From NCBI GenBank assembly GCA_001314715.1, contig LJSV01000012.1:1760-65759 (forward strand): a stretch of 64,000 nt of DNA, given 5' to 3'. The translations under genes and the position numbers were made by a program. Under the pieces are notes generated by a model. That model was not told the origin of the DNA, searched no databases, and was given only the letters and a program-made list of their open reading frames with translations. Positions 1-21,512 of this stretch are shown here, piece by piece. The DNA comes from Rhodobacteraceae bacterium HLUCCA12. GTDB lineage: Bacteria > Pseudomonadota > Alphaproteobacteria > Rhodobacterales > Rhodobacteraceae. The first letter of the stretch is position 1. Each line of letters opens with the position of its first letter.

Positions 1-2
1 TC

Positions 3-233
3 CTTGCGCGCGTCAGTGCCGGTTCCGGCGTAGCCTTCACGCTGCATGATCTGCGCCGCACTTTCATCACCATCGCCGAAAGCCTCGACGTGCCACACTA
101 CGCGCTCAAGCGACTGTTGAACCACCGCTCCAATGGCGACGTGACCGGCGGCTATATCGTCATCAACGCCGAACGCCTGCGCGAGCCTATGGAAAAGGTG
201 GCAGCGCGCATTCTGGAACTTGCCGGGGCGTGA
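3..233 (+). CDS. int: Tyrosine recombinase/integrase, C-terminal fragment (5' part outside window)
   Basis: Frame from nt 3 reads LARVSAGSGVAFTLHDLRRTFITIAESLDVPHYALKRLLNHRSNGDVTGGY...ELAGA*: HxLRR box, LLNH and catalytic Tyr. Not in the ORF track. Confidence 0.88.
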   Translation, partial: LARVSAGSGVAFTLHDLRRTFITIAESLDVPHYALKRLLNHRSNGDVTGGYIVINAERLREPMEKVAARILELAGA

Positions 234-257
234 CCGGTTCGCATTTGGGTTAGCATG

Positions 258-287
258 GGCATCGCACACCATCGTGCGGTGCCCTTT
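258..287 (+). terminator. Terminator-like hairpin after the integrase
   Basis: GGCATCGCAC-ACCATC-GTGCGGTGCC followed only by CTTT (weak U-tract). Confidence 0.3.
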
Positions 288-426
288 GCGTGCCATCGGA
301 CCAGCCTGCACCTGCTCGAACCTCTTAATCGGGTGATCTTGCAGGCTTTGGCGACGCGCGTGCGCGCATGAGATGGCATTGGACTGTCTTTGACCACACA
401 GGAATCGCAACGAACTTTGCTTGACC

Positions 427-445
427 TGACCCATAGCTCGGGTCA
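427..445. promoter_or_regulatory. Palindromic operator-like site
   Basis: TGACCC-N7-GGGTCA perfect inverted repeat overlapping a TTGACC hexamer at 421-426. Confidence 0.35.
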
Positions 446-450
446 TCCAT

Positions 451-580
451 ATAGGGCGAAAGACAAACCCAGAAGCGGGGTCGCATCCGTGGGGCGGTGA
501 AAGTCCGCAGTCGCGACGGGGAAGGCTATGGCCGGTCCGCATGTTGGTCCGCGCTAACCGACCGGGGCGTATGGCCGAAT
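451..580 (+). ncRNA. Candidate structured RNA between int and alpA
   Basis: Stems GTCGC(480-484)/GCGAC(513-517) enclosing GCGG-TGAAAGT-CCGC(494-508); CCGGTC(532-537)/GACCGG(560-565) enclosing GTTGG/CTAAC. Confidence 0.3.
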
Positions 581-604
581 TTCAGGCACTGGCATCAACC
601 CAGT

Positions 605-618
605 CGTGACACGTCACG
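605..618. promoter_or_regulatory. Palindrome upstream of alpA-like gene
   Basis: CGTGAC-AC-GTCACG, about 20 bp before the ATG at 638. Confidence 0.3.
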
Positions 619-637
619 CGCTCCGAAAGTAATCACA

Positions 638-925
638 ATGGAACCACTTCTTACTCAGGGGAGGGGCATAGCCCTCCCCACTGCTATCGGCCCCAAGCAC
701 AGGGACAGGGCGACAAAGGCGCTTCTTACAACCAAAGAAGTCGCAACACTCACTGGGCTCAGCGCTTCGTATTTCGAAAAGGGCCGCCTCTATGGCTACG
801 GCCCGAAATTCATCCGCCTGCAAGCCACCGGCAAAACTGGCAAGATTCTCTATCGCCTTCAAGCGGTAGAAGAATGGCTGGCGGCGCAGGAGCGCGAACC
901 GGAGGTGTTCAGCCATGGTCGATAG
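638..925 (+). CDS. AlpA/excisionase-like helix-turn-helix protein
   Basis: LLTTKEVATLTGLSASYFEKGRLYGYGPKFIRL...KILYRLQAVEEWL matches the AlpA/HTH_17 pattern; lies between integrase and primase; start moved to ATG 638. Confidence 0.8.
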   Translation: MEPLLTQGRGIALPTAIGPKHRDRATKALLTTKEVATLTGLSASYFEKGRLYGYGPKFIRLQATGKTGKILYRLQAVEEWLAAQEREPEVFSHGR

Positions 926-3212
926 AAAGAAGCCCAGCGCTGAACGAGCAGTTGAATACATAGTCTGGCTGAACAACGACGCACCAATGCACCTTGAATC
1001 AATGTCAAGCCAAGGGAACGCAAGGCCAATTGCAAAGCAGTTCACTCCGGCTGACAGCGCGGCAGCTATCGCCTTCGTGGCGATGGCCAATGCCGAAGAT
1101 ACCCAGCGGAACTTATATTTTCTCCCAAACGCTGAGTTTTTGACAGGTGAGCGCAAGAAGGCCAACTTGACCGGGGCGCGGTTCCTCCATGTTGATCTGG
1201 ATTACAAGGACTATCCGGGCACCCCGGAGGAACAATTCAACTTTGTCACAGCATTGCTGGACGATTCGCGAAAACGGCCGAAGGGTGTCCCAAGACCTAC
1301 CGCGATCTGGTTTACCGGCGGTGGGTGTCAGGCAGTTTGGAAGCTTGCCGATCGGGTCGGAATTGAGCAGGCAGAAGCCTTGAATCAGGCCCTCCTGCTC
1401 GCCTTCCAAGGTGGACCGGGCACACACAACGCTGATCGCCTTCTGCGTGTACCTTGGACGATGAACTGGCTGAATGACAAGAAGCGCGCGTCTGGGCGCG
1501 AACCGGCGCTGGCATGGCACTTTGAACCCATGAAGCTAGACCAACCGCCCCGGACGTACTCGATGGATGATTTTCACGTGAAGTTGCCCAAAGAGGAGGC
1601 CAAGCCCGCTGGGAAGCCCTCGGCGGTGGCCATACCTGCGATTGAGATCGAACCGCTGCCGCTGCCGGATCATCTTTATGAAATCCTTCCGTCTGACCCG
1701 GAATGGGCCGAGGCAATCATGTCGGGCAATAACCCACCCGGCAAAAGCTACGCCTCGCGTTCTGAACTGGTGTACGCCGCTACGATTTGGATGCTTTTTC
1801 GAGGAATGCAGCCGGGGCATGTGCTTTCGATACTTATATCCCCGGATGTAGGTATCAGCGCTCATGTGCTGGAAAACCCAAGCCCACTGGCCTACGCGCA
1901 CCGTCAGGTGGTGCGTGCGATGGCTGCAATTGAGGTGCGTACCGGCGGGTGGCCAATACGTGATGATGACGGTAGGCCGATCCGTAACGATCCACAGAAC
2001 GTTCGCTATGCTTTAGCGGTGAAGGGGGTGGACGCCCAGCGAAACACGTTCACTCAGACCGACGAGTTTCGCGGTTATGGATTGGACGGTCGTGACCTTA
2101 ACGACATCGTAGAAATTCTATCCAGCGCGTTCGCGCGCGAGTTGGATTTCAAGGCAACGCCTGCCGTGATCAAGCGTGAGCTATTGGCCATAGCACATGA
2201 GCAGCAACACCATCCGGTCGAAGACTATCTTGACCAGCTTGTCTGGGACGGGACACCGCGGATCGACCGGTGGCTGACTGATTACTGTGGTGCTGACGAC
2301 ACTGAATTGAACGCTGAGTTCGGCAGCAAGCTCGTGATCGCGGGTGTGCGCCGTATCAAGCAGCCGGGTGTGAAATTCGACACAATGCTGGTGCTCGAAG
2401 GTGCGCAAGGCGCAGGCAAATCCCAGATCGCCCAGCGCCTAGCAATCCGCGATGAATGGTTCTGTGGCAGCCTCGACCTCAAGAGCGACGACAAGACAAA
2501 GGCCGAGCTACTGGCGCGCGCGTGGATCGTAGAATGCCAAGAGCTGGACGGGTTGAACAAGACTAACCAGCAGAATCTTAAGCGGTTCCTGAGCACGGCT
2601 ATCGACACGTACCGTCGCGCATACGCGCGCGATGCCAGCGAAAATCGGCGGCACTGTATTATCCTCGGCACCACCAACGAGCGCAGGTATATGCGTGACC
2701 TTACTGGGAACCGTAGGATGTGGCCGGTACTTGTGGGGAAGATCGACTTGGCTCGCTTTAGCACTGACGTGGACCAGCTCTGGGCCGAGGCCGTGGTGCG
2801 GGAGGCGACGGGTGAGTCCATCACATTGTCGCCGCACCTCTGGGCTGCTGCTGCCGAGCTTCAAGGGCAGCGCATGGTCGAGGATGCCTATGCGGACGTC
2901 TTGGAGGATGCGTTTGCCGAAACCAAGGGCCGCGTTTCAATGGAGAGCGTGAAGCTCCTGCTCGGCATCGACACACCGCGTATGTCTACGATGGATACGC
3001 GGCGGATCAATGCGGTCATGGCAGGGCTGGGGTGGGACTATGGCACCCATCGTCTGCACGACCTCGGACGGCGTGAAAAGGCCCAGCGCAAGGGGTTTGC
3101 GCGCGGCAAAGGTGACGAACGGAAGGTTGAGTACATCGCCCGGCGGATCGAGGGGGGAATCGTGGTGATAGACCGCCTCGACGCACAACATGGCAATGAG
3201 CCGCCGTTTTGA
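915..3212 (+). CDS. AEP (RepB-like) primase fused to VapE/VirE-family P-loop ATPase/helicase
   Basis: N-terminal HVDLD, TGGGCQAVW and NADRLLRVP primase motifs; C-terminal GAQGAGKS Walker A, WIVECQEL, GTTN and DLTGNRR typical of VapE. Confidence 0.88.
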   Translation: MVDRKKPSAERAVEYIVWLNNDAPMHLESMSSQGNARPIAKQFTPADSAAAIAFVAMANAEDTQRNLYFLPNAEFLTGERKKANLTGARFLHVDLDYKDYPGTPEEQFNFVTALLDDSRKRPKGVPRPTAIWFTGGGCQAVWKLADRVGIEQAEALNQALLLAFQGGPGTHNADRLLRVPWTMNWLNDKKRASGREPALAWHFEPMKLDQPPRTYSMDDFHVKLPKEEAKPAGKPSAVAIPAIEIEPLPLPDHLYEILPSDPEWAEAIMSGNNPPGKSYASRSELVYAATIWMLFRGMQPGHVLSILISPDVGISAHVLENPSPLAYAHRQVVRAMAAIEVRTGGWPIRDDDGRPIRNDPQNVRYALAVKGVDAQRNTFTQTDEFRGYGLDGRDLNDIVEILSSAFARELDFKATPAVIKRELLAIAHEQQHHPVEDYLDQLVWDGTPRIDRWLTDYCGADDTELNAEFGSKLVIAGVRRIKQPGVKFDTMLVLEGAQGAGKSQIAQRLAIRDEWFCGSLDLKSDDKTKAELLARAWIVECQELDGLNKTNQQNLKRFLSTAIDTYRRAYARDASENRRHCIILGTTNERRYMRDLTGNRRMWPVLVGKIDLARFSTDVDQLWAEAVVREATGESITLSPHLWAAAAELQGQRMVEDAYADVLEDAFAETKGRVSMESVKLLLGIDTPRMSTMDTRRINAVMAGLGWDYGTHRLHDLGRREKAQRKGFARGKGDERKVEYIARRIEGGIVVIDRLDAQHGNEPPF

Positions 3213-3229
3213 GCTGCGGAGCGTACCAT

Positions 3230-3544
3230 GTAACGTAACATAAGGCCCAAACTGGCCTGCACTACCCGGCGGGGCGCTACGGTGACCCGCCTTTTGCTTT
3301 CCCAAACCCTTCTGACCTAAGTTACGGTTACAAGTTACAAAAACCGGCAAATTCTATGCCTGTGGCCCTCCCTTCCGAAGCCGCCCTGGCGCGCACAGGG
3401 GCGCCCTGTTTGGCCGCCAGCCCCCGGCGGGGGCGAAAAATGGCAGTAGGCCGCTAGACGGCCCGCTCCGGGGCTCTGGCAGCCCCCGCTGCCCGGGGCG
3501 CCGGTGGTGTATGTTACCGCACCGGTGCGCGCCGCTCCGGTTAC
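3230..3544. repeat. GTAAC/GTTAC pentamer cluster, putative replication origin
   Basis: GTAAC at 3230 and 3235; GTTAC at 3321, 3327, 3334, 3513 and 3540, directly downstream of the primase-helicase gene. Confidence 0.5.
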
Positions 3545-3991
3545 TCAACGCTGAAGATATACGTCTTCCACAGCCTTCGGTGACCTTTTCCCACGTTTAC
3601 CTTGGGTGATGTGTGCAGGGCCGCTCAGTCCGCAACTTCTAGAATGGCAACCTCGATGAAGCTGTCTCCATCAAACAAGCAGTCAATACTGAAAGTAAGT
3701 TCGAGGTTAATGAATTTTTGGGCGGTGAATTGGGAAACCAACCTTGAACGTCCGGAGGCATAGGTCGTGAAAGAGACATGCATAATGCGAGAAAATTGAA
3801 CAGTCGATGATGAGTTGCCTCGGCGCGCGCTGCAAGCGCGCAAGATTCTGCCGTAGCGGTCCGCCCTATTGGCTGGGTGGCACCAAAAACCCGACCGTTA
3901 TCCGCATCGTCCGGGCTGAACCATACATTTAATGCCCCACCATTTGCCCGCAAGTCACATAGAACTCACATGCGCCCGGTGATCGCCGAGG

Positions 3992-4369
3992 TTATCGGCG
4001 GGTTATCAAGCCGCGCGGTTGCTTGGCCACCGGTACGGTTCCAGCCTTCCATGAGTGCCCGCATTGCAGACAAGTTACATAGACCTTTCGACTTCCCAAA
4101 AAACCGGAAAGCAACCCGACCGTACCAAGCGCAACCCCTCCCGCAACGGCTTTCCCCAATCCAAACCCCATCTTGTTTGCGGTGACAGACGTGCTGCGGC
4201 ACTTTGGGCATCTTGGGCCGTTTCCGCGGCTATTTTTGGCGGCGATAGCGCCCGAACGCGGTTCATCGCAAGTTGGGGCAAAGCGCTCAATATAGGCCTT
4301 GCTACAGCCGCAACGCGTGCACTTTCCGTCCTCGATCAGGTGTTCGCGCTTCGTGGGAATCTCTGCCAT
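3992..4369 (-). CDS. Zinc-ribbon protein with a Gly-rich hydrophobic hairpin between CxxC pairs
   Basis: CTRCGC...C, then CPKC-(GFGLGKAVAGGVALGTVGLLSGFLGS)-CLQC; ATG at 4369 preferred over TTG at 4381. Confidence 0.75.
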   Translation of the reverse strand: MAEIPTKREHLIEDGKCTRCGCSKAYIERFAPTCDEPRSGAIAAKNSRGNGPRCPKCRSTSVTANKMGFGLGKAVAGGVALGTVGLLSGFLGSRKVYVTCLQCGHSWKAGTVPVAKQPRGLITRR

Positions 4370-4413
4370 ACCATTTCTCAACTATCTGAAAATAAAGACC
4401 GACTTTTGCATGA

Positions 4414-4436
4414 ACATTGCAGCAGAAAGGCAATGT
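4414..4436. promoter_or_regulatory. Operator-like inverted repeat between divergent cargo genes
   Basis: ACATTGC-N9-GCAATGT in an AT-rich spacer. Confidence 0.3.
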
Positions 4437-4476
4437 GCCTCAAAATTTATGCAATAATAGTTTCTTACCAACTACT

Positions 4477-4681
4477 ATGCAAGCTGGCCCATCACGACGA
4501 ACGTCATGGAATCCGAAGAGAACAGGAGTGGCGGGGCCTACATCAAGAGCAGCTTGCGTTCGTGGCTGCCCTGAACCGCGCCTATGTCAGCCGCGTCGAG
4601 CGCGGGGTACGCAACCCCACGGTCATTACCGTCGCCAAGCTCGCTGTCGTACTGGGCGCGGAGCCGTATAAGTTATTGTAA
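4477..4681 (+). pseudogene. Frameshifted XRE-family HTH regulator
   Basis: The HTH body QEWRGLHQEQLAFVAALNRAYVSRVERGVRNPTVITVAKLA lacks an in-frame start; ATG 4477 (MQAGPSRRTSWNPKR) is one frame off, with the junction near 4522. Confidence 0.6.
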
Positions 4682-4704
4682 TGGAAGATTTATTTCGAGA
4701 AGGC

Positions 4705-4780
4705 TGGTGCCGCTGAAGGGACTCGAACCCCCGACCCCATCATTACGAATGACGTGCTCTACCAGCTGAGCTACAGCGGC
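4705..4780 (-). tRNA. tRNA-Thr(CGT)
   Basis: GCCGCTG/CAGCGGC acceptor stem, D arm GCTC/GAGC, anticodon loop TT-CGT-AA, GGTTCGAGTCC T arm, encoded CCA; 76 nt. Confidence 0.97.
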
Positions 4781-4796
4781 ACTCTTCTCTCACATG

Positions 4797-4825
4797 GCCC
4801 TACTATGGCCCTATTAGTTCCACAA
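4797..4825 (-). promoter_or_regulatory. Candidate sigma70 promoter for the intact tRNA-Thr
   Basis: TTGTGG-N17-TAGGGC on the minus strand. Confidence 0.35.
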
Positions 4826-4876
4826 GCCCCGATCTAAGTCACTGGCTTCACAAGTCTTTCTTGGGCGGACCCAATA

Positions 4877-4925
4877 ATTACGAATGACGTGCTCTACCAG
4901 CTGAGCTACAGCGGCACTCTTCTCT
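4877..4925 (-). repeat. Perfect 49-bp copy of the tRNA-Thr 5' half plus 10-nt leader
   Basis: Identical to 4742-4790; offset of 135 bp. Confidence 0.92.
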
Positions 4926-5010
4926 GTTCTGGCCGTACCATGGCCTTGAACGTTACTTTTGCCGCATGGAAGCGACACACTAAAGACGCCAATCAGAGGC
5001 GGCTGCGCAA

Positions 5011-5049
5011 CTTGTGAAAGACGCGCTCGGCCAAACGGGCCACGGCGGC
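5011..5049 (-). pseudogene. Decayed third copy of the tRNA-Thr 5' half
   Basis: GCCGCCGTGGCCCGTTTGGCCGAGCGCGTCTTTCACAAG, 26/39 identical without gaps to tRNA nt 1-39; offset of 134 bp from the second copy. Confidence 0.65.
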
Positions 5050-5070
5050 ACTTCAACCGGCGTGGCGCGG

Positions 5071-5099
5071 TCTTTAGCACTGGCAGGAAGGCGTATCCA
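5071..5099 (-). promoter_or_regulatory. Candidate native tRNA promoter upstream of the decayed copy
   Basis: TGGATA-N17-TAAAGA followed by a GC-rich discriminator, about 25 bp past the hemY stop. Confidence 0.4.
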
Positions 5100-5124
5100 G
5101 TCCCAATTTCAACTTTTTTGCCCG

Positions 5125-6711
5125 CTACAGCCCGCGCCTGCGGGTCTCGTCGAGGTCGATCACCTCGGCGTCGGGGATCGGCTGTTGGGCCGGGTCGCGG
5201 GCGGTATCGCCGTTCCTGGCGGTCTCGGTCTCTGCGGCGGGGTCCGGCGTCGAAACCGCGGCCGGATCTTCGACCGGTTCGGCTTTCCCTGCGCCGGCGG
5301 GTTGATCATGCGAGATCCTGTCGCCGCGCGGAGGGCTGGACGCGCCGATGATCAGGGGCAGCATTTCTGTGCCAGCGGCACTTGCGCCCCCGCCGTCTGC
5401 CGGGCTGCGCCAGCTGAGCGTGTCGAACCCCTCGCAGTTGTCGCACACGGCATGCCAGCGCGGATGAATGTGATGACACTTGTCGCATACCCATTGCGGC
5501 CCTCGTGGGGCGATCACGGCGCGCGCCAGCCAGCCGCGAACAACGGCATCATCCGACCCCTCGCCCCGGTCGATCGCGGCCATGATCGTCATCACACGCT
5601 GCGTGGGGTTCGTCTGGTGCAGATCGCCGATGGCGCGCCGCGCCTCGGGGAAATCCTCGGCCGCGATCAGCAATTCGGCGCGGGTCATCCGCGCCTCGTC
5701 ACCCTCGCTCAGCGCAAGAAACTTCTCGAACCGGCGCACACGCTGGGCGGCGGGTTCGTCCGGTTCGATCTCGGCAAAGGCCTGGGCCAGTTCCGGGTGC
5801 GGCTGTAGCTTCCATGCCTTTTTCAGGACTTTCGCGGCGGCGCTGCCTTTGCCGCGCGCAACCAGGGCGCGCGCTGCCATGACCGCGGCCGGCACCAGCG
5901 CCGGTGCGGTCTTGTGGGCCTCGATCGCCAGGTCCTGCGCCATTGTCGTGTTGCCCTCGGCGGCCAGGGCCTCGGCTTGTTGCAATGCCAGAACCGCATC
6001 GCGGCGGACATAGACATCCCTGGGCAGGCGGCCGGTGCGGCGGGTTTCGGTCAGGGTCCGACGGGCGCCCTGCCAGTCGCCGGCCTTGTTCTGAAGTTGC
6101 AGCAGGATGTCCTGCGTCGATCCATGGGCGGGTTGCAGCGCCAGCGCCTTTTCCGCGAGCTTGCGGGCCTTGTCGGCTTCGCCTTGTTCCAGCTTGTGTC
6201 GCATCAACCCCTGAACGCCGACGAAGCGCGCGCGCTCGTCATCCAACAAGCGCTTGTAATACTCTTCCGCCAGCGCGGTGTTGCCGTTCTTGCGTGCGGC
6301 CTGCGCCATCAGCAGATTTGTCAGCGCCTTGTTTTCCAGAAGCTTTTCGGCCTTGCGCGCCTTGGTCAAGGCTTTCTCGCCCTCATCGGCGGCCAGTGCC
6401 AGAAAGCCGTCTGTCAGGGCTTCGAGGCCGCGGCGCTTGCGTGAGGCCTCGAAATAGCGGCTGATCGCGGTTTCGTCACCGTTGATGAAACGCAATGTCG
6501 CGACGACCAGCCCGGCCAGCTTGAGCAAGAGCCACAGGACGGCCAGCAAGACCAGGGCCGCGATCGCGGCCTGAACCGGACCCAGCGTGAATTCCGTGCC
6601 GGCCAGAGCGATGCGGATCCCCGCTTCAGTGTCCAGCAGCGCATCTGCCCCCAGCGTCAGGCCGGCCACGACCAGAAGGAACACCGCGATCTTGAGTATG
6701 GTCCAGAGCAT
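5125..6711 (-). CDS. hemY: HemY-family membrane TPR protein
   Basis: Two N-terminal TM segments, Ala-rich TPR-like helices, C-terminal CDKC...CDNC; adjacent to COG4223 and hemD. Confidence 0.85.
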   Translation of the reverse strand: MLWTILKIAVFLLVVAGLTLGADALLDTEAGIRIALAGTEFTLGPVQAAIAALVLLAVLWLLLKLAGLVVATLRFINGDETAISRYFEASRKRRGLEALTDGFLALAADEGEKALTKARKAEKLLENKALTNLLMAQAARKNGNTALAEEYYKRLLDDERARFVGVQGLMRHKLEQGEADKARKLAEKALALQPAHGSTQDILLQLQNKAGDWQGARRTLTETRRTGRLPRDVYVRRDAVLALQQAEALAAEGNTTMAQDLAIEAHKTAPALVPAAVMAARALVARGKGSAAAKVLKKAWKLQPHPELAQAFAEIEPDEPAAQRVRRFEKFLALSEGDEARMTRAELLIAAEDFPEARRAIGDLHQTNPTQRVMTIMAAIDRGEGSDDAVVRGWLARAVIAPRGPQWVCDKCHHIHPRWHAVCDNCEGFDTLSWRSPADGGGASAAGTEMLPLIIGASSPPRGDRISHDQPAGAGKAEPVEDPAAVSTPDPAAETETARNGDTARDPAQQPIPDAEVIDLDETRRRGL

Positions 6712-6722
6712 GGGGTTTCCCT

Positions 6723-8021
6723 TCAGTCGTTCGTCAGGCGGGTGCGCAGTTCGGCAAGGGCAGCCATTGCCGCTTGCCGCGTTTCGGCCTGCGCCCGCCA
6801 GTCGGCCATCGCGTCGCGCGCGGGCTCGGGCAAGTTGTCCAACTCGCGCAGGGTCGCGGACAGATCGGATGCCCGCAGATGGGCTTCGGCGCGCGACAGG
6901 ATCGCGTCGGCATCGTCGCCTTCGCGCGGGACCAGCGATCGCGCGCCGGTCTGATTGCGCAGGAAGCGCACGACGCGGTCGGTGACCACAGTATCCTCGG
7001 GCATCGGTGCGGCGGCCAGTGCCGCGCGGGCGGCGTCAGGGAAATCGGCTTGCAATGCGCGCAGCTCGGGGATTCCCTGGCGGAACCGATCAAGCCCTTC
7101 GGGCAGATCGGTGATCGCGGCGATGGGGGCCAGGGCGTCGGGCGCCGGATCGCCGCTTTCGGCGGCAGCTTCGAGCCGGGCAAGCGCGGCGCGGGCCTCA
7201 AGCCGGTCCTGCGTCGCCTGCAATTCCTGCTGCGCGGTTTCGATGGCCTGTTCCTGTTCCTGCTGGCGGTCGCGCGCGGTGTCCAGCGCGTCGGCAATGA
7301 GGGTTTCGACCTCTTCGGCCAGGTCGTCCTCGAGTGTGGCGATGCGCGCTTCGAGTGCATCCAGTCTGTCGGACGGGTCATCGCGCGCCTCAAGGGCCGA
7401 CAAGCGGTCGTCGATCGGTTGCAGGTCGGGCTGTGCATCTTCCAGGGCGGCGACCCGTTCGGTCAATGTCTCGACCGTTGTGTCGGTCCTGCTGTCTTCA
7501 AGCGCGGCGATCCGCGCTTCGAGCGCCGAGGTATCGGTCGGCTGCCACCCGTGCGGAAAGAAGTAGAATACGGCACCAGTTGCGATCACCACAGCCACAA
7601 TGCCCCCCAGGATCATCGGAAGCGCCTCGGACCGGCGCCCGGCCGGGGTGGCGGTTTGCGATTCCGCGCCCGACTCGGACGTCGTTGCCGCAGGTTTCGC
7701 GGGCGAAGCCGACGCTGCCCGATCCTCGGTGCCGGTCGATGACACCGAGTCATCGGCTTTCGCTTCATCAGGCTGATCGCCTGATTGCGCGCCGCTCGTG
7801 GGCGTGGTCGTACCCGTCTCGCTTGCAGGGGGTGTTTCGGACGCCGCCGTGGTGGTCGGGGCACCTTCGGACGCAGGCGGGGTTTCTTGCGCCTCGCCTT
7901 TCCGGGTGCCGCCATCCTTCGTGGTTTTCGGGGCGCTCTCGGGCTGGATCGTGGTGTCCTTGTCGGCCGAGCCGGTGGTCTTGGCGCGCGGGCGCCTGGT
8001 TCCTGATCCGGTTCTGGCCAT
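6723..8021 (-). CDS. COG4223 / mitofilin-like inner-membrane coiled-coil protein
   Basis: Acidic low-complexity N-terminus, one TM, coiled coil, C-terminal GARSL...ILSRAEAHL...W..QA; position between hemD and hemY. Confidence 0.8.
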   Translation of the reverse strand: MARTGSGTRRPRAKTTGSADKDTTIQPESAPKTTKDGGTRKGEAQETPPASEGAPTTTAASETPPASETGTTTPTSGAQSGDQPDEAKADDSVSSTGTEDRAASASPAKPAATTSESGAESQTATPAGRRSEALPMILGGIVAVVIATGAVFYFFPHGWQPTDTSALEARIAALEDSRTDTTVETLTERVAALEDAQPDLQPIDDRLSALEARDDPSDRLDALEARIATLEDDLAEEVETLIADALDTARDRQQEQEQAIETAQQELQATQDRLEARAALARLEAAAESGDPAPDALAPIAAITDLPEGLDRFRQGIPELRALQADFPDAARAALAAAPMPEDTVVTDRVVRFLRNQTGARSLVPREGDDADAILSRAEAHLRASDLSATLRELDNLPEPARDAMADWRAQAETRQAAMAALAELRTRLTND

Positions 8022-21190: not shown

Positions 21191-21267
21191 GCGGTTGTAG
21201 CTCAGTCGGTTAGAGTACCGGCCTGTCACGCCGGGGGTCGCGGGTTCGAGCCCCGTCAACCGCGCCA
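21191..21267 (+). tRNA. tRNA-Asp(GTC) copy 1
   Basis: 77-nt cloverleaf, loop CT-GTC-AC, encoded CCA. Confidence 0.97.
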
Positions 21268-21435: not shown

Positions 21436-21512
21436 GCGGTTGTAGCTCAGTCGGTTAGAGTACCGGCCTGTCACGCCGGGGGTCGCGGGTTCGAGCCCCG
21501 TCAACCGCGCCA
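21436..21512 (+). tRNA. tRNA-Asp(GTC) copy 2
   Basis: Identical to copy 1. Confidence 0.97.

Follow-up and report, generated by a model that had tools for sequence, protein, structure and literature searches.

An array of tRNA-Thr(CGU) 5' halves in a Rhodobacteraceae genome as the probable record of nested insertions by tRNA-replacing islands

Introduction

Islands that integrate into tRNA genes classically carry the 3' part of the target gene in their attP (about 45 bp of identity), rebuild the gene upon insertion, and leave no 5' fragment. A sublocation in the anticodon loop was reportedly described by Williams in 2002 for tRNA-targeting islands and prophages. In the present study, we analyzed a 64,000-nucleotide stretch of the genome of Rhodobacteraceae bacterium HLUCCA12 (contig LJSV01000012.1; hereafter, the window), in which two truncated copies of the 5' half of a tRNA-Thr(CGU) gene stand in tandem upstream of an intact tRNA-Thr(CGU) gene, next to hemY. 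This array is very probably the left-hand record of two nested, site-specific insertions by a single family of integrative islands, each of which would split the resident tRNA gene and bring a complete one to replace it. The 178-bp repeats at tyrT of Escherichia coli are likewise short, in tandem, and next to a tRNA gene of whose sequence they include a part, but they lie downstream of the gene, hold 3'-end sequence, and are not known to be tied to an integrase or to att arms.

Replacement of a split tRNA gene has so far been known chiefly from mycobacteriophages. In actinobacteriophages (Fionnbharth, LeBron, Gaia, and others), tRNA-dependent lysogeny was demonstrated experimentally (Guerrero-Bustamante and Hatfull, mBio 2024, PMC10865867); its traits are a core of 8 to 17 bp, integration that rebuilds no tRNA gene, compensation for the loss by a phage-borne tRNA, and arm-type sites. 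How common tRNA-dependent lysogeny is outside actinobacteriophages is a question that this study itself raises (PMC10865867), and the passages of their article considered here also cite Lactobacillus johnsonii Lj965. Prophages of Sinorhizobium meliloti inactivate tRNA-Leu(UAG) and carry a replacement tRNA-Leu, a situation termed "still poorly described" in the passages considered of the corresponding report (Int J Mol Sci 2024, PMC11476347).

Results

Structure of the array

ARAGORN called a single tRNA-Thr(cgt) gene in the array, designated copy A (coordinates of all features are listed in Table 1). The two upstream copies, B and C, received no ARAGORN tRNA call, and the Rfam tRNA model matched only positions 4708-4780. 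A repeat search detected a 78-nt direct repeat (4733-4810 and 4868-4945; 90% identity; spacing of 135) and a three-copy family made of the tRNA 5' part (4747-4783, 4882-4918 with 100% identity, and 5016-5052 with 73% identity; spacings of 135 and 134). By direct comparison, nucleotides 1 to 39 of the tRNA and a 10-nt leader were identical between copies B and A (49/49), with looser similarity reaching forward to nucleotide 48 (GGGTC) and back to position -30, and copy C was identical to copy A at 26 of 39 positions. These approaches agree with one another and with the three-copy array that an earlier note had described from the sequence of this stretch. The identity of copy B ended exactly at the anticodon loop, where an arm specific to the island family, T(A/G)..GGGTCC, begins. 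Tandem Repeats Finder reported nothing for positions 4400-5400 because the units are too diverged.

The spacers between the copies are 95 and 96 nt long, and their mutual alignment contained 55 identical positions out of 96. Its score was 12 versus -20.2 ± 4.7 in dinucleotide shuffles, none of which (0/2000) reached 12; the resemblance between spacers that had been noticed by hand is thus better than that of all shuffled controls. The 39 nt at the 3' side, beside the tRNA start, had a z score of 6.9, and the 57 nt at the 5' side had one of 2.5 (p = 0.0145). The repeat units can be aligned end to end (70% over 186 nt). Because the array is the same in two independent assemblies (ENA and JGI) and its Logan unitig depth (132-165) is like that of the flanks (126-150), copy B is not an assembly artifact, a doubt that the earlier note had raised itself.

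Copy C could in principle be a chance match or the terminator hairpin of hemY, which would leave a single insertion only. Its identity is just 26/39, it contains a small GGCC..GGCC palindrome, and the spacer that follows it (spacer 1) was missed by the family profile described below. However, an identity of at least 26/39 to the half was reached by copies A, B, and C only, at no other site in both strands of the 64-kb window (127,922 positions). Copy C also stands in phase with the other copies (134 nt), aligns with the tRNA genes of the related loci L002 and L006 including the leader GAAGT, and is followed by a spacer whose 3' part matches that of spacer 2 (z = 6.9). A terminator scan of positions 4600-5200 found no sites. 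We therefore regard a coincidental copy C as extremely improbable. A scan of the same interval for the sigma-70 consensus also gave 0 sites and lent no support to the promoter hexamers proposed in the earlier note.

Host locus and its relatives

Loci and contigs compared with the window are designated by L numbers. The order hemY followed by tRNA-Thr(cgt) is normal in Rhodobacteraceae, and most of 80 related loci share this synteny. In the nearest relatives, whose HemY is 75-76% identical, a single tRNA gene stands without any halves. Copy C aligned with the tRNA gene, and the sequence before it with the promoter region, of two of these nearest relatives (L002 and L001), and copy C is thus the front end of the host gene in its original place, as had been supposed. 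The motif GGTGCTA(T/A)AG of this promoter region also stands before the native tRNA-Thr genes of many other Rhodobacteraceae.

A 5' half 126-135 nt before the intact gene was also present at three further hemY loci, which belong to different genera, and their spacers resemble those of the window. Counted by the number of units, hemY-anchored loci comprised 55 with no half, 3 with one, and the window with two; two halves also occurred in seven other genomes. The variation in unit number (0, 1, or 2) for which the earlier note had called is therefore present among genomes.

Such an array might have been acquired in one event, either as a ready-made nested composite or as foreign hemY-tRNA DNA brought by homologous recombination (for example, through a gene transfer agent). 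The islands described below are common to several orders, which indicates horizontal movement, and arrays with two well-kept halves exist (L104, L125, and L117). In the window, though, copy C (26/39) and the first arm (p = 0.0145) are far more decayed than copy B (39/39), and copy C lies behind the host's own promoter, collinear with the relatives. The decay of copy C and of the first arm next to an intact copy B therefore fits two events far apart in time, and acquisition in a single step appears very unlikely.

L006 is a single-tRNA relative without a half, in which TTGACT-N17-..GGGCCATAGTAGGGC stands directly upstream of the tRNA gene (L006 7555-7614); this upstream motif is that of the island near arm. 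L006 is either the source lineage of the island tRNA and promoter or a replaced locus that lost its half.

Left junction across Alphaproteobacteria

The exact junction between half and arm, GTCATTCGTAATTANNGGGTCC, was present in 49 species-representative genomes, and in 46 of these an intact tRNA-Thr(cgt) gene followed at 124-137 nt. With a broader pattern, TTCGTAAKTAGCGGGTC, we found at least 105 sites at which an intact tRNA gene follows a half, in more than 100 genomes belonging to Rhodobacterales, Hyphomicrobiales, Caulobacterales, Hyphomonadaceae, and Sphingomonadales; about 8 of the matches listed were chance matches in unrelated taxa. The spacer (85-98 nt) was conserved over 86 loci as TAGCGGGTCC .. 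GAATGAC .. CCA .. GTT .. TAGTAGGGCCATAGTAGG, and in none of them did the distance from the half to the next tRNA exceed 85-98 nt. A profile built from 84 other loci, from which the close relatives of the window were left out, matched positions 4790-4872 of the window (i.e., most of spacer 2) with an E value of 7e-17.

Four loci (L087, L111, L204, and L249) carried a 5' half together with the beginning of the conserved arm, with no intact tRNA-Thr gene within 160 nt; their elements may be truncated or rearranged. In L189 (a Candidatus Parendomicrobium metagenome-assembled genome [MAG]; position ~762), a normal tRNA-Thr(CGT) gene reads TTCGTAAGTAGCGGGTCGGAGGTTCAAATCC, and the first 10 nt of the island arm equal nucleotides 39-48 of this tRNA-Thr of another lineage. 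The arm may be the relic of a 3' half that once restored the gene. As a candidate for a decayed tRNA 3' half, the P' arm was rejected, since no T-arm was found in it despite the match of the first 10 nt.

Integrase, island ends, and cargo

Public contigs of the same genome extend the window leftward by 1.8 kb (window position 1 corresponds to position 1802 of L081). L081 carries, at positions 874-2034, a gene for a 386-amino-acid protein with Arm-DNA-bind_3, Phage_int_SAM_1, and Phage_integrase domains. The 3' end of this integrase gene is positions 1-233 of the window, and the intact tRNA gene therefore abuts an integrase island. Homologs with 65-83% identity, of which that in L173 has the same domains, were present in 50 genomes. 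In about 44 of the 50, a tRNA-Thr(cgt) gene lay 4.3-6 kb downstream of the integrase gene (int), and 41 of those ~44 also carried a displaced 5' half 124-137 nt further on.

At 28 integrase-centered loci, the sequence ..AAAACA/ATTCGTAA/TGATGGGGTC..CCA was found 3-9 kb upstream of int, in the orientation of the tRNA; this far-end sequence is a tRNA 3' half that starts exactly at the anticodon loop. The elements measured 9.5-17.2 kb (median, 13 kb), and the core common to both junctions was A-TTCGTAA-(T), that is, 8-9 bp. Past the core, the arm reads (T/G)TAGCGGGTCC.., which is not a tRNA 3' half. Because of this arm, and because the functional gene is separate, the family does not belong to the classical 3'-restoring type.

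The repeat TAGTAGGG (at most 1 mismatch) occurred in the P arm at the fixed offsets -181, -162, and -151 from the core, with 2.7 copies per P arm versus 0.14 in control regions, and a pair of TAGTAGGG repeats stood at about +60 and +71 in the P' arm. This layout is the one expected of arm-type sites for an arm-binding integrase, and the repeats are candidates for that role. L112 is a complete mini-element of 1.8 kb that consists of the host 5' half, ATTCGTAAT, the conserved arm, a foreign tRNA-Thr gene, and 1.6 kb of cargo; at its far end, a second TAGTAGGG-type repeat precedes AAAATTCGTAAT and the host 3' half, whose acceptor strand matches that of the host 5' half.

All variable cargo that we examined consisted of DNA modification or restriction genes (L173 3554-9684, L014 8209-12745, L008 8023-10305, and L183 682-2319). 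The families represented were dndC/D/E-like genes, a type I restriction-modification system with an AAA ATPase, ResIII and N6_Mtase fragments, and an Eco57I-type methyltransferase. Of the island proteins scanned, none matched a capsid, tail, or terminase family.

A sister integrase clade (65-66% identity) was observed in L167-L170, which include Sulfitobacter, Roseobacter, and Roseovarius aestuarii. These integrase genes are flanked within ~200 nt by tRNA-Thr(ggt) and, opposite it, by either tRNA-Ser(cga) or tRNA-Thr(cgt); they may represent a related family that uses another tRNA.

Origin of the intact tRNA gene

At many loci, the acceptor-stem strand of the displaced half differed from that of the intact tRNA, whose own two acceptor strands paired perfectly. 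The intact gene is therefore not a chimera of a new 5' part and an old 3' part. The half sits behind a host-type promoter at the host position, and it follows that the half is native and that the whole intact gene, with its promoter, was imported. When the displaced 5' and 3' halves were joined in silico, ARAGORN recognized a tRNA-Thr(cgt) with 7/7 acceptor pairs at 8/8 loci, and at 5 of these 8 the halves fitted each other better than they fitted the island tRNA. A model in which the 5' half alone is replaced was ruled out by the acceptor-stem comparison.

These observations bear on the proposal of the earlier note, in which the incoming units were cassettes of about 135 bp, or scars of 5'-restoring elements, that joined a new 5' half to the host 3' half. 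Fragments of the 5' end of the target tRNA do occur at a minority of islands (159 of 3919 in Islander; PMC4383910). In L129 (a Roseovarius MAG, JAGXGX010000081.1), moreover, the acceptor strands of the tRNA at 7064 are mismatched, as in a chimera (5' GCCGGTG versus 3' CAGCGGC, with a G5/G68 mismatch); its displaced half reads TCCGCTG. However, where the loci are informative, the two parts of the intact tRNA agree with each other, and both of its strands depart from those of the host halves: the island carries a whole tRNA-Thr(CGT) gene that pairs with itself. An element formerly lying between the half and a regenerated gene, as the note had also envisaged, is at odds with the at most 85-98 nt seen there in 86 loci, since independent deletions would need to be identical. 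The element genes and the displaced 3' half lie downstream instead, so that what looked like a short cassette corresponds to the left terminus of an integrase island of 9.5-17 kb located downstream of the intact tRNA. Nor is the arrangement the mirror image of a normal att duplication, as both halves are displaced, with the 3' half of the host gene lying at the island's far end behind the same core. Cassettes or scars of this kind are highly unlikely.

A purely local origin of the array, in which a 135-bp unit was duplicated twice by slippage or unequal crossing-over and copy B was maintained by gene conversion, would account for the regular period (135/134), the direct repeats, and the end-to-end alignment of the units. 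It would leave unexplained why the same order of half, arm, and tRNA, with the same arm sequence, recurs beside unrelated flanks in more than 100 genomes of several orders, and why this arrangement is tied to one integrase family. The acceptor stem of the half is often unlike that of the intact gene, matching 3' halves are preceded by an identical 8-9-bp core at a distance of 9-17 kb, and the identity of copy B stops at the anticodon loop and not elsewhere. We give tandem duplication almost no credence.

Proposed history of the locus

We propose that a P4-type tyrosine integrase recombines attP with the anticodon loop of the host tRNA-Thr(CGU) gene, a reaction presumably catalyzed by the integrase of the island itself. 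Insertion at the 8-9-bp core would not rebuild the host gene. Instead, a complete island tRNA-Thr(CGT) gene with its own promoter, located 85-98 nt inside the left arm, would replace the split host gene, and the host would then need the island tRNA. The expected order after insertion is host promoter, host 5' half, core, P' arm, island promoter, and island tRNA, followed by the XRE, VapE, and AlpA-like genes, int, variable cargo, P arm, core, and host 3' half. Since the island's own tRNA gene would be the only intact target left, a second island would insert into it and move the 3' half and body of the first island downstream. Each insertion would leave the previous 5' half 124-137 nt upstream and push the 3' half 9-17 kb downstream.

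Applied to the window, copy C would be the host half, copy B the front of the tRNA gene of the first island (element 1), and copy A the tRNA gene of the newest island (element 2), which would cover positions 1-4780 and extend leftward. The complete identity of copies B and A would arise because copy B and its promoter remained in a working tRNA gene under selection until a recent second insertion, and the spacers would be only 57% identical because the arm DNA of element 1, like copy C, has drifted since the first insertion. The gene conversion or selection on copy B that the earlier note had thought necessary is thus superfluous, as its history as a working gene suffices. Copies B and C would have no function of their own. 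Other elements of that note hold up well: copy C would have been displaced twice, and the incoming DNA would bring its own promoter through site-specific integration.

Far end of the window island and points against the proposal

In the sole sequencing run that contains the window genome, one contig departs from the tRNA at the anticodon loop and continues into the P arm, TGTTTTTCGG... A public contig from the same sample, L183, carries an Eco57I-type methyltransferase gene, TAGTAGGG-like repeats, the P arm, and the core, followed by a 3' half identical to that of the window tRNA. The trailer after this 3' half is ~75% similar to DNA that follows island-borne tRNA genes elsewhere, as would be expected of the partner of copy B. 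The depth of L183 (143/134x) is close to that of the window island (150x) and its flanks, which suggests that L183 belongs to the same genome as the window.

Several findings weigh against the proposed history. The connection between L183 and the window genome is drawn from depth and the shared sample only, and all three assemblies break 760-870 nt beyond int, so that the window and L183 are not joined. A decayed native 3' half, the partner of copy C, was not seen. A free attP junction had 0 matches in viral contigs, and no P arm before a core was found in at least 120 genome matches; neither an excised circle nor an empty site was found in the viral contigs or in those genome matches, and no excision joint was found in the sole metagenome that holds the window genome. 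Present-day mobility is unproven because none of these four was found. Between the integrase gene and the two junctions there are 3-9 kb on one side and 4-6 kb on the opposite side; in most P4-type elements, the integrase gene is located beside attP. In L129, the mismatched acceptor stem suggests occasional recombination between copies or a chimeric MAG assembly. Finally, spacer 1 had no match in the family profile search and is supported by the pairwise test only. As its P'-arm portion is only marginally similar to that of spacer 2 (p = 0.0145), the assignment of the older unit to this family draws mainly on the promoter part of spacer 1, the phase, and the position.

The joints that were listed in that metagenome belonged to contigs of other organisms or were ambiguous placements of the repeated half. 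No displaced 3' half was found in the 870 nt just beyond the window integrase, and this sequence has no similarity to other hemY loci. Three independent assemblies end within ~110 nt of each other (L081 1-100), and the break adjoins a perfect hairpin, CCAATTCCGAA-N9-TTCGGAATTGG; a repeat or a population variant is probably present there. In run X1, two more contexts downstream of the tRNA 3' end were observed at ~54x each (window 4695-4705 and L183 2943-2951), which suggests that the mat sample contained another organism, one with both an intact gene and a displaced 3' half.

Other features of the window

The features of the locus are listed in Table 1. The VapE-like gene is conserved beside the integrase gene in related loci. 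The HTH_17 and DUF1233 matches of the small excisionase-like gene were obtained on a longer open reading frame (497-925), and the public contigs call a 95-amino-acid gene there. The GC content is 53-62% to the left of position ~5000 versus 63-73% (about 68%) to the right.

Table 1. Features of the array and of the adjoining part of the window; element 1 and element 2 are the older and the newer island of the proposed history
Feature	Position	Strand	Evidence
hemY (HemY_N + TPR), host gene and anchor of the native locus	5125..6711	-	Pfam HemY_N, E = 2e-18
Native intergenic region with the host tRNA promoter region (..GTTGAAATTGGGACTGGATAC..CCAGTGCTAAAGACCGCGCCA..)	5050..5124	-	Base-for-base alignment with L002 and L001
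Copy C, nt 1-39 of the host tRNA-Thr(CGT) gene (native 5' half, decayed), probably severed by the first insertion	5011..5049	-	26/39; orthologous tRNA position
Spacer 1, probable left-end remnant of element 1 (older element)	4916..5010	-	55/96 to spacer 2
Spacer 1, putative decayed P' arm	~4955-5010	-	
Spacer 1, putative promoter and leader of the element 1 tRNA	4916-4954	-	
Copy B, 5' half (nt 1-39) of the element 1 tRNA-Thr(CGT) gene, probably severed by the second insertion	4877..4915	-	39/39 to copy A
Core A-TTCGTAA-T within copy B	4877-4885	-	
Spacer 2, left (P') att arm of element 2	4781..4876	-	Profile match 4790-4872; conserved blocks in 86 loci
Spacer 2, paired motif TAATAGGGCCATAGTAGGG, which overlaps the tRNA promoter and may represent arm-type integrase sites, and leader GAGAAGAGT			
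Copy A, intact tRNA-Thr(CGT) gene of element 2, only functional copy at the locus	4705..4780	-	ARAGORN; Rfam, 67 bits
XRE-family helix-turn-helix gene of element 2 (82 amino acids on public contig)	4433..4681	+	Pfam HTH_3 / HTH_31
VapE-like primase/helicase-type gene of element 2	915..3212	+	Pfam VapE-like_dom, E = 6e-67
Small HTH_17 / excisionase-like (AlpA-like) gene of element 2	638..925	+	Weak Pfam HTH_17 and DUF1233 matches
Tyrosine integrase gene, 3' end	1..233	+	Remainder just left of the window, on L081

The leader and trailer of tRNA-Thr(CGT) are complementary (GAGAAGAGT ... GCCTTCTC) in the window (4781-4790 and 4696-4704) and at many other loci, in native and island genes alike, and together they probably lengthen the stem of the precursor for processing. 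The sequence that directly follows the tRNA gene (CCTTCTC..) had been considered as proof of continuity with the island and was rejected, because the complementary pair (GAGAAG../..CTTCTC) is common at native tRNA-Thr genes too.

Two further observations concern other parts of the window. A tandem pair of tRNA-Asp(gtc) genes is located at 21191-21267 and 21436-21512 on the plus strand, 245 nt apart. The gene upstream of hemY (6723-8021, minus strand) has a weak C-terminal match to Mitofilin (MICOS Mic60-like); genes of the Mitofilin type are known in alphaproteobacterial hemX-hemY neighborhoods.

Discussion

Judged by their sequences, the islands possess every sequence-level trait of tRNA-dependent lysogeny. 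As in that system, a tyrosine integrase of the arm-binding type is present, attB lies inside a host tRNA gene, putative arm-type repeats flank a short core (8-9 bp in the islands), neither junction holds a functional tRNA, and the element brings a tRNA with the same isotype and anticodon. The differences are the hosts, which are Alphaproteobacteria and not Actinobacteria; the target, tRNA-Thr(CGU); and the element itself, a 9.5-17-kb island without phage structural genes among the proteins scanned. The junction was also absent from the collection of viral contigs. The element is thus an island, or possibly a satellite, and not a phage. In Fionnbharth, the phage tRNA gene overlaps an unrelated gene elsewhere, whereas the island tRNA gene is placed 85-98 nt from the core, in the attP arm. 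The islands also differ from the phages in that they probably reinsert into their own tRNA, which would give rise to arrays of 5' halves. The case is therefore an already described mechanism in a new, non-phage, alphaproteobacterial, and very widespread island family; our literature search found no description of this tRNA-Thr(CGU) family.

With classical islands of the anticodon loop, the family shares a crossover in the 7-nt loop, a 3' fragment at the far end, an integrase of the P4/Arm-DNA-bind_3 type, and the possibility of tandem arrays. It differs from them in the extent of identity (8-9 bp), in the dead 5' half that is left, and in the functional gene, which is a separate, complete copy. 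Tools that pair an intact tRNA gene with a 3' fragment would file these islands as ordinary ones and miss the replacement, and they would place the left boundary of the island ~130 nt too far in.

In the passages of the reports considered here, the S. meliloti prophages and L. johnsonii Lj965 resemble the islands in that integration inactivates the target tRNA and in that its substitute, borne by the element, has the same anticodon and is similar to genes from other taxa. S. meliloti is likewise an alphaproteobacterium. In both systems, the elements are prophages that occupy other tRNA genes. Those same passages describe no core, arm architecture, arrays of 5' halves, or family-wide distribution for either system.

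In a more speculative and unlikely reading, the core, the arm, and the replacement tRNA form a compact module that does more than repair. If it did, the tRNA of the element, as the sole remaining attB after each insertion, would turn the locus into a landing site that renews itself and preserves the succession of invasions much as growth rings do. The host would also be addicted: with the native halves decayed, as in copy C, loss of the stack would mean loss of tRNA-Thr(CGU). The idea that the retained 5' halves are transcribed from the host promoter and act as tRNA-half RNAs or decoys is unsupported; the question is worth asking because the islands carry defense-type cargo.

For annotation, the finding means that in carrier genomes tRNA-Thr(CGU) is foreign and the host gene is present in two pieces. 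The array of 5' halves offers a cheap, readable marker of the number and order of invasions, and the conserved att region of ~330 bp, together with its tRNA gene, is a candidate single-copy integration tool for Rhodobacterales and Hyphomicrobiales. Splitting of a tRNA gene and its replacement would thus be a strategy used by a very successful non-phage family in at least five alphaproteobacterial groups.

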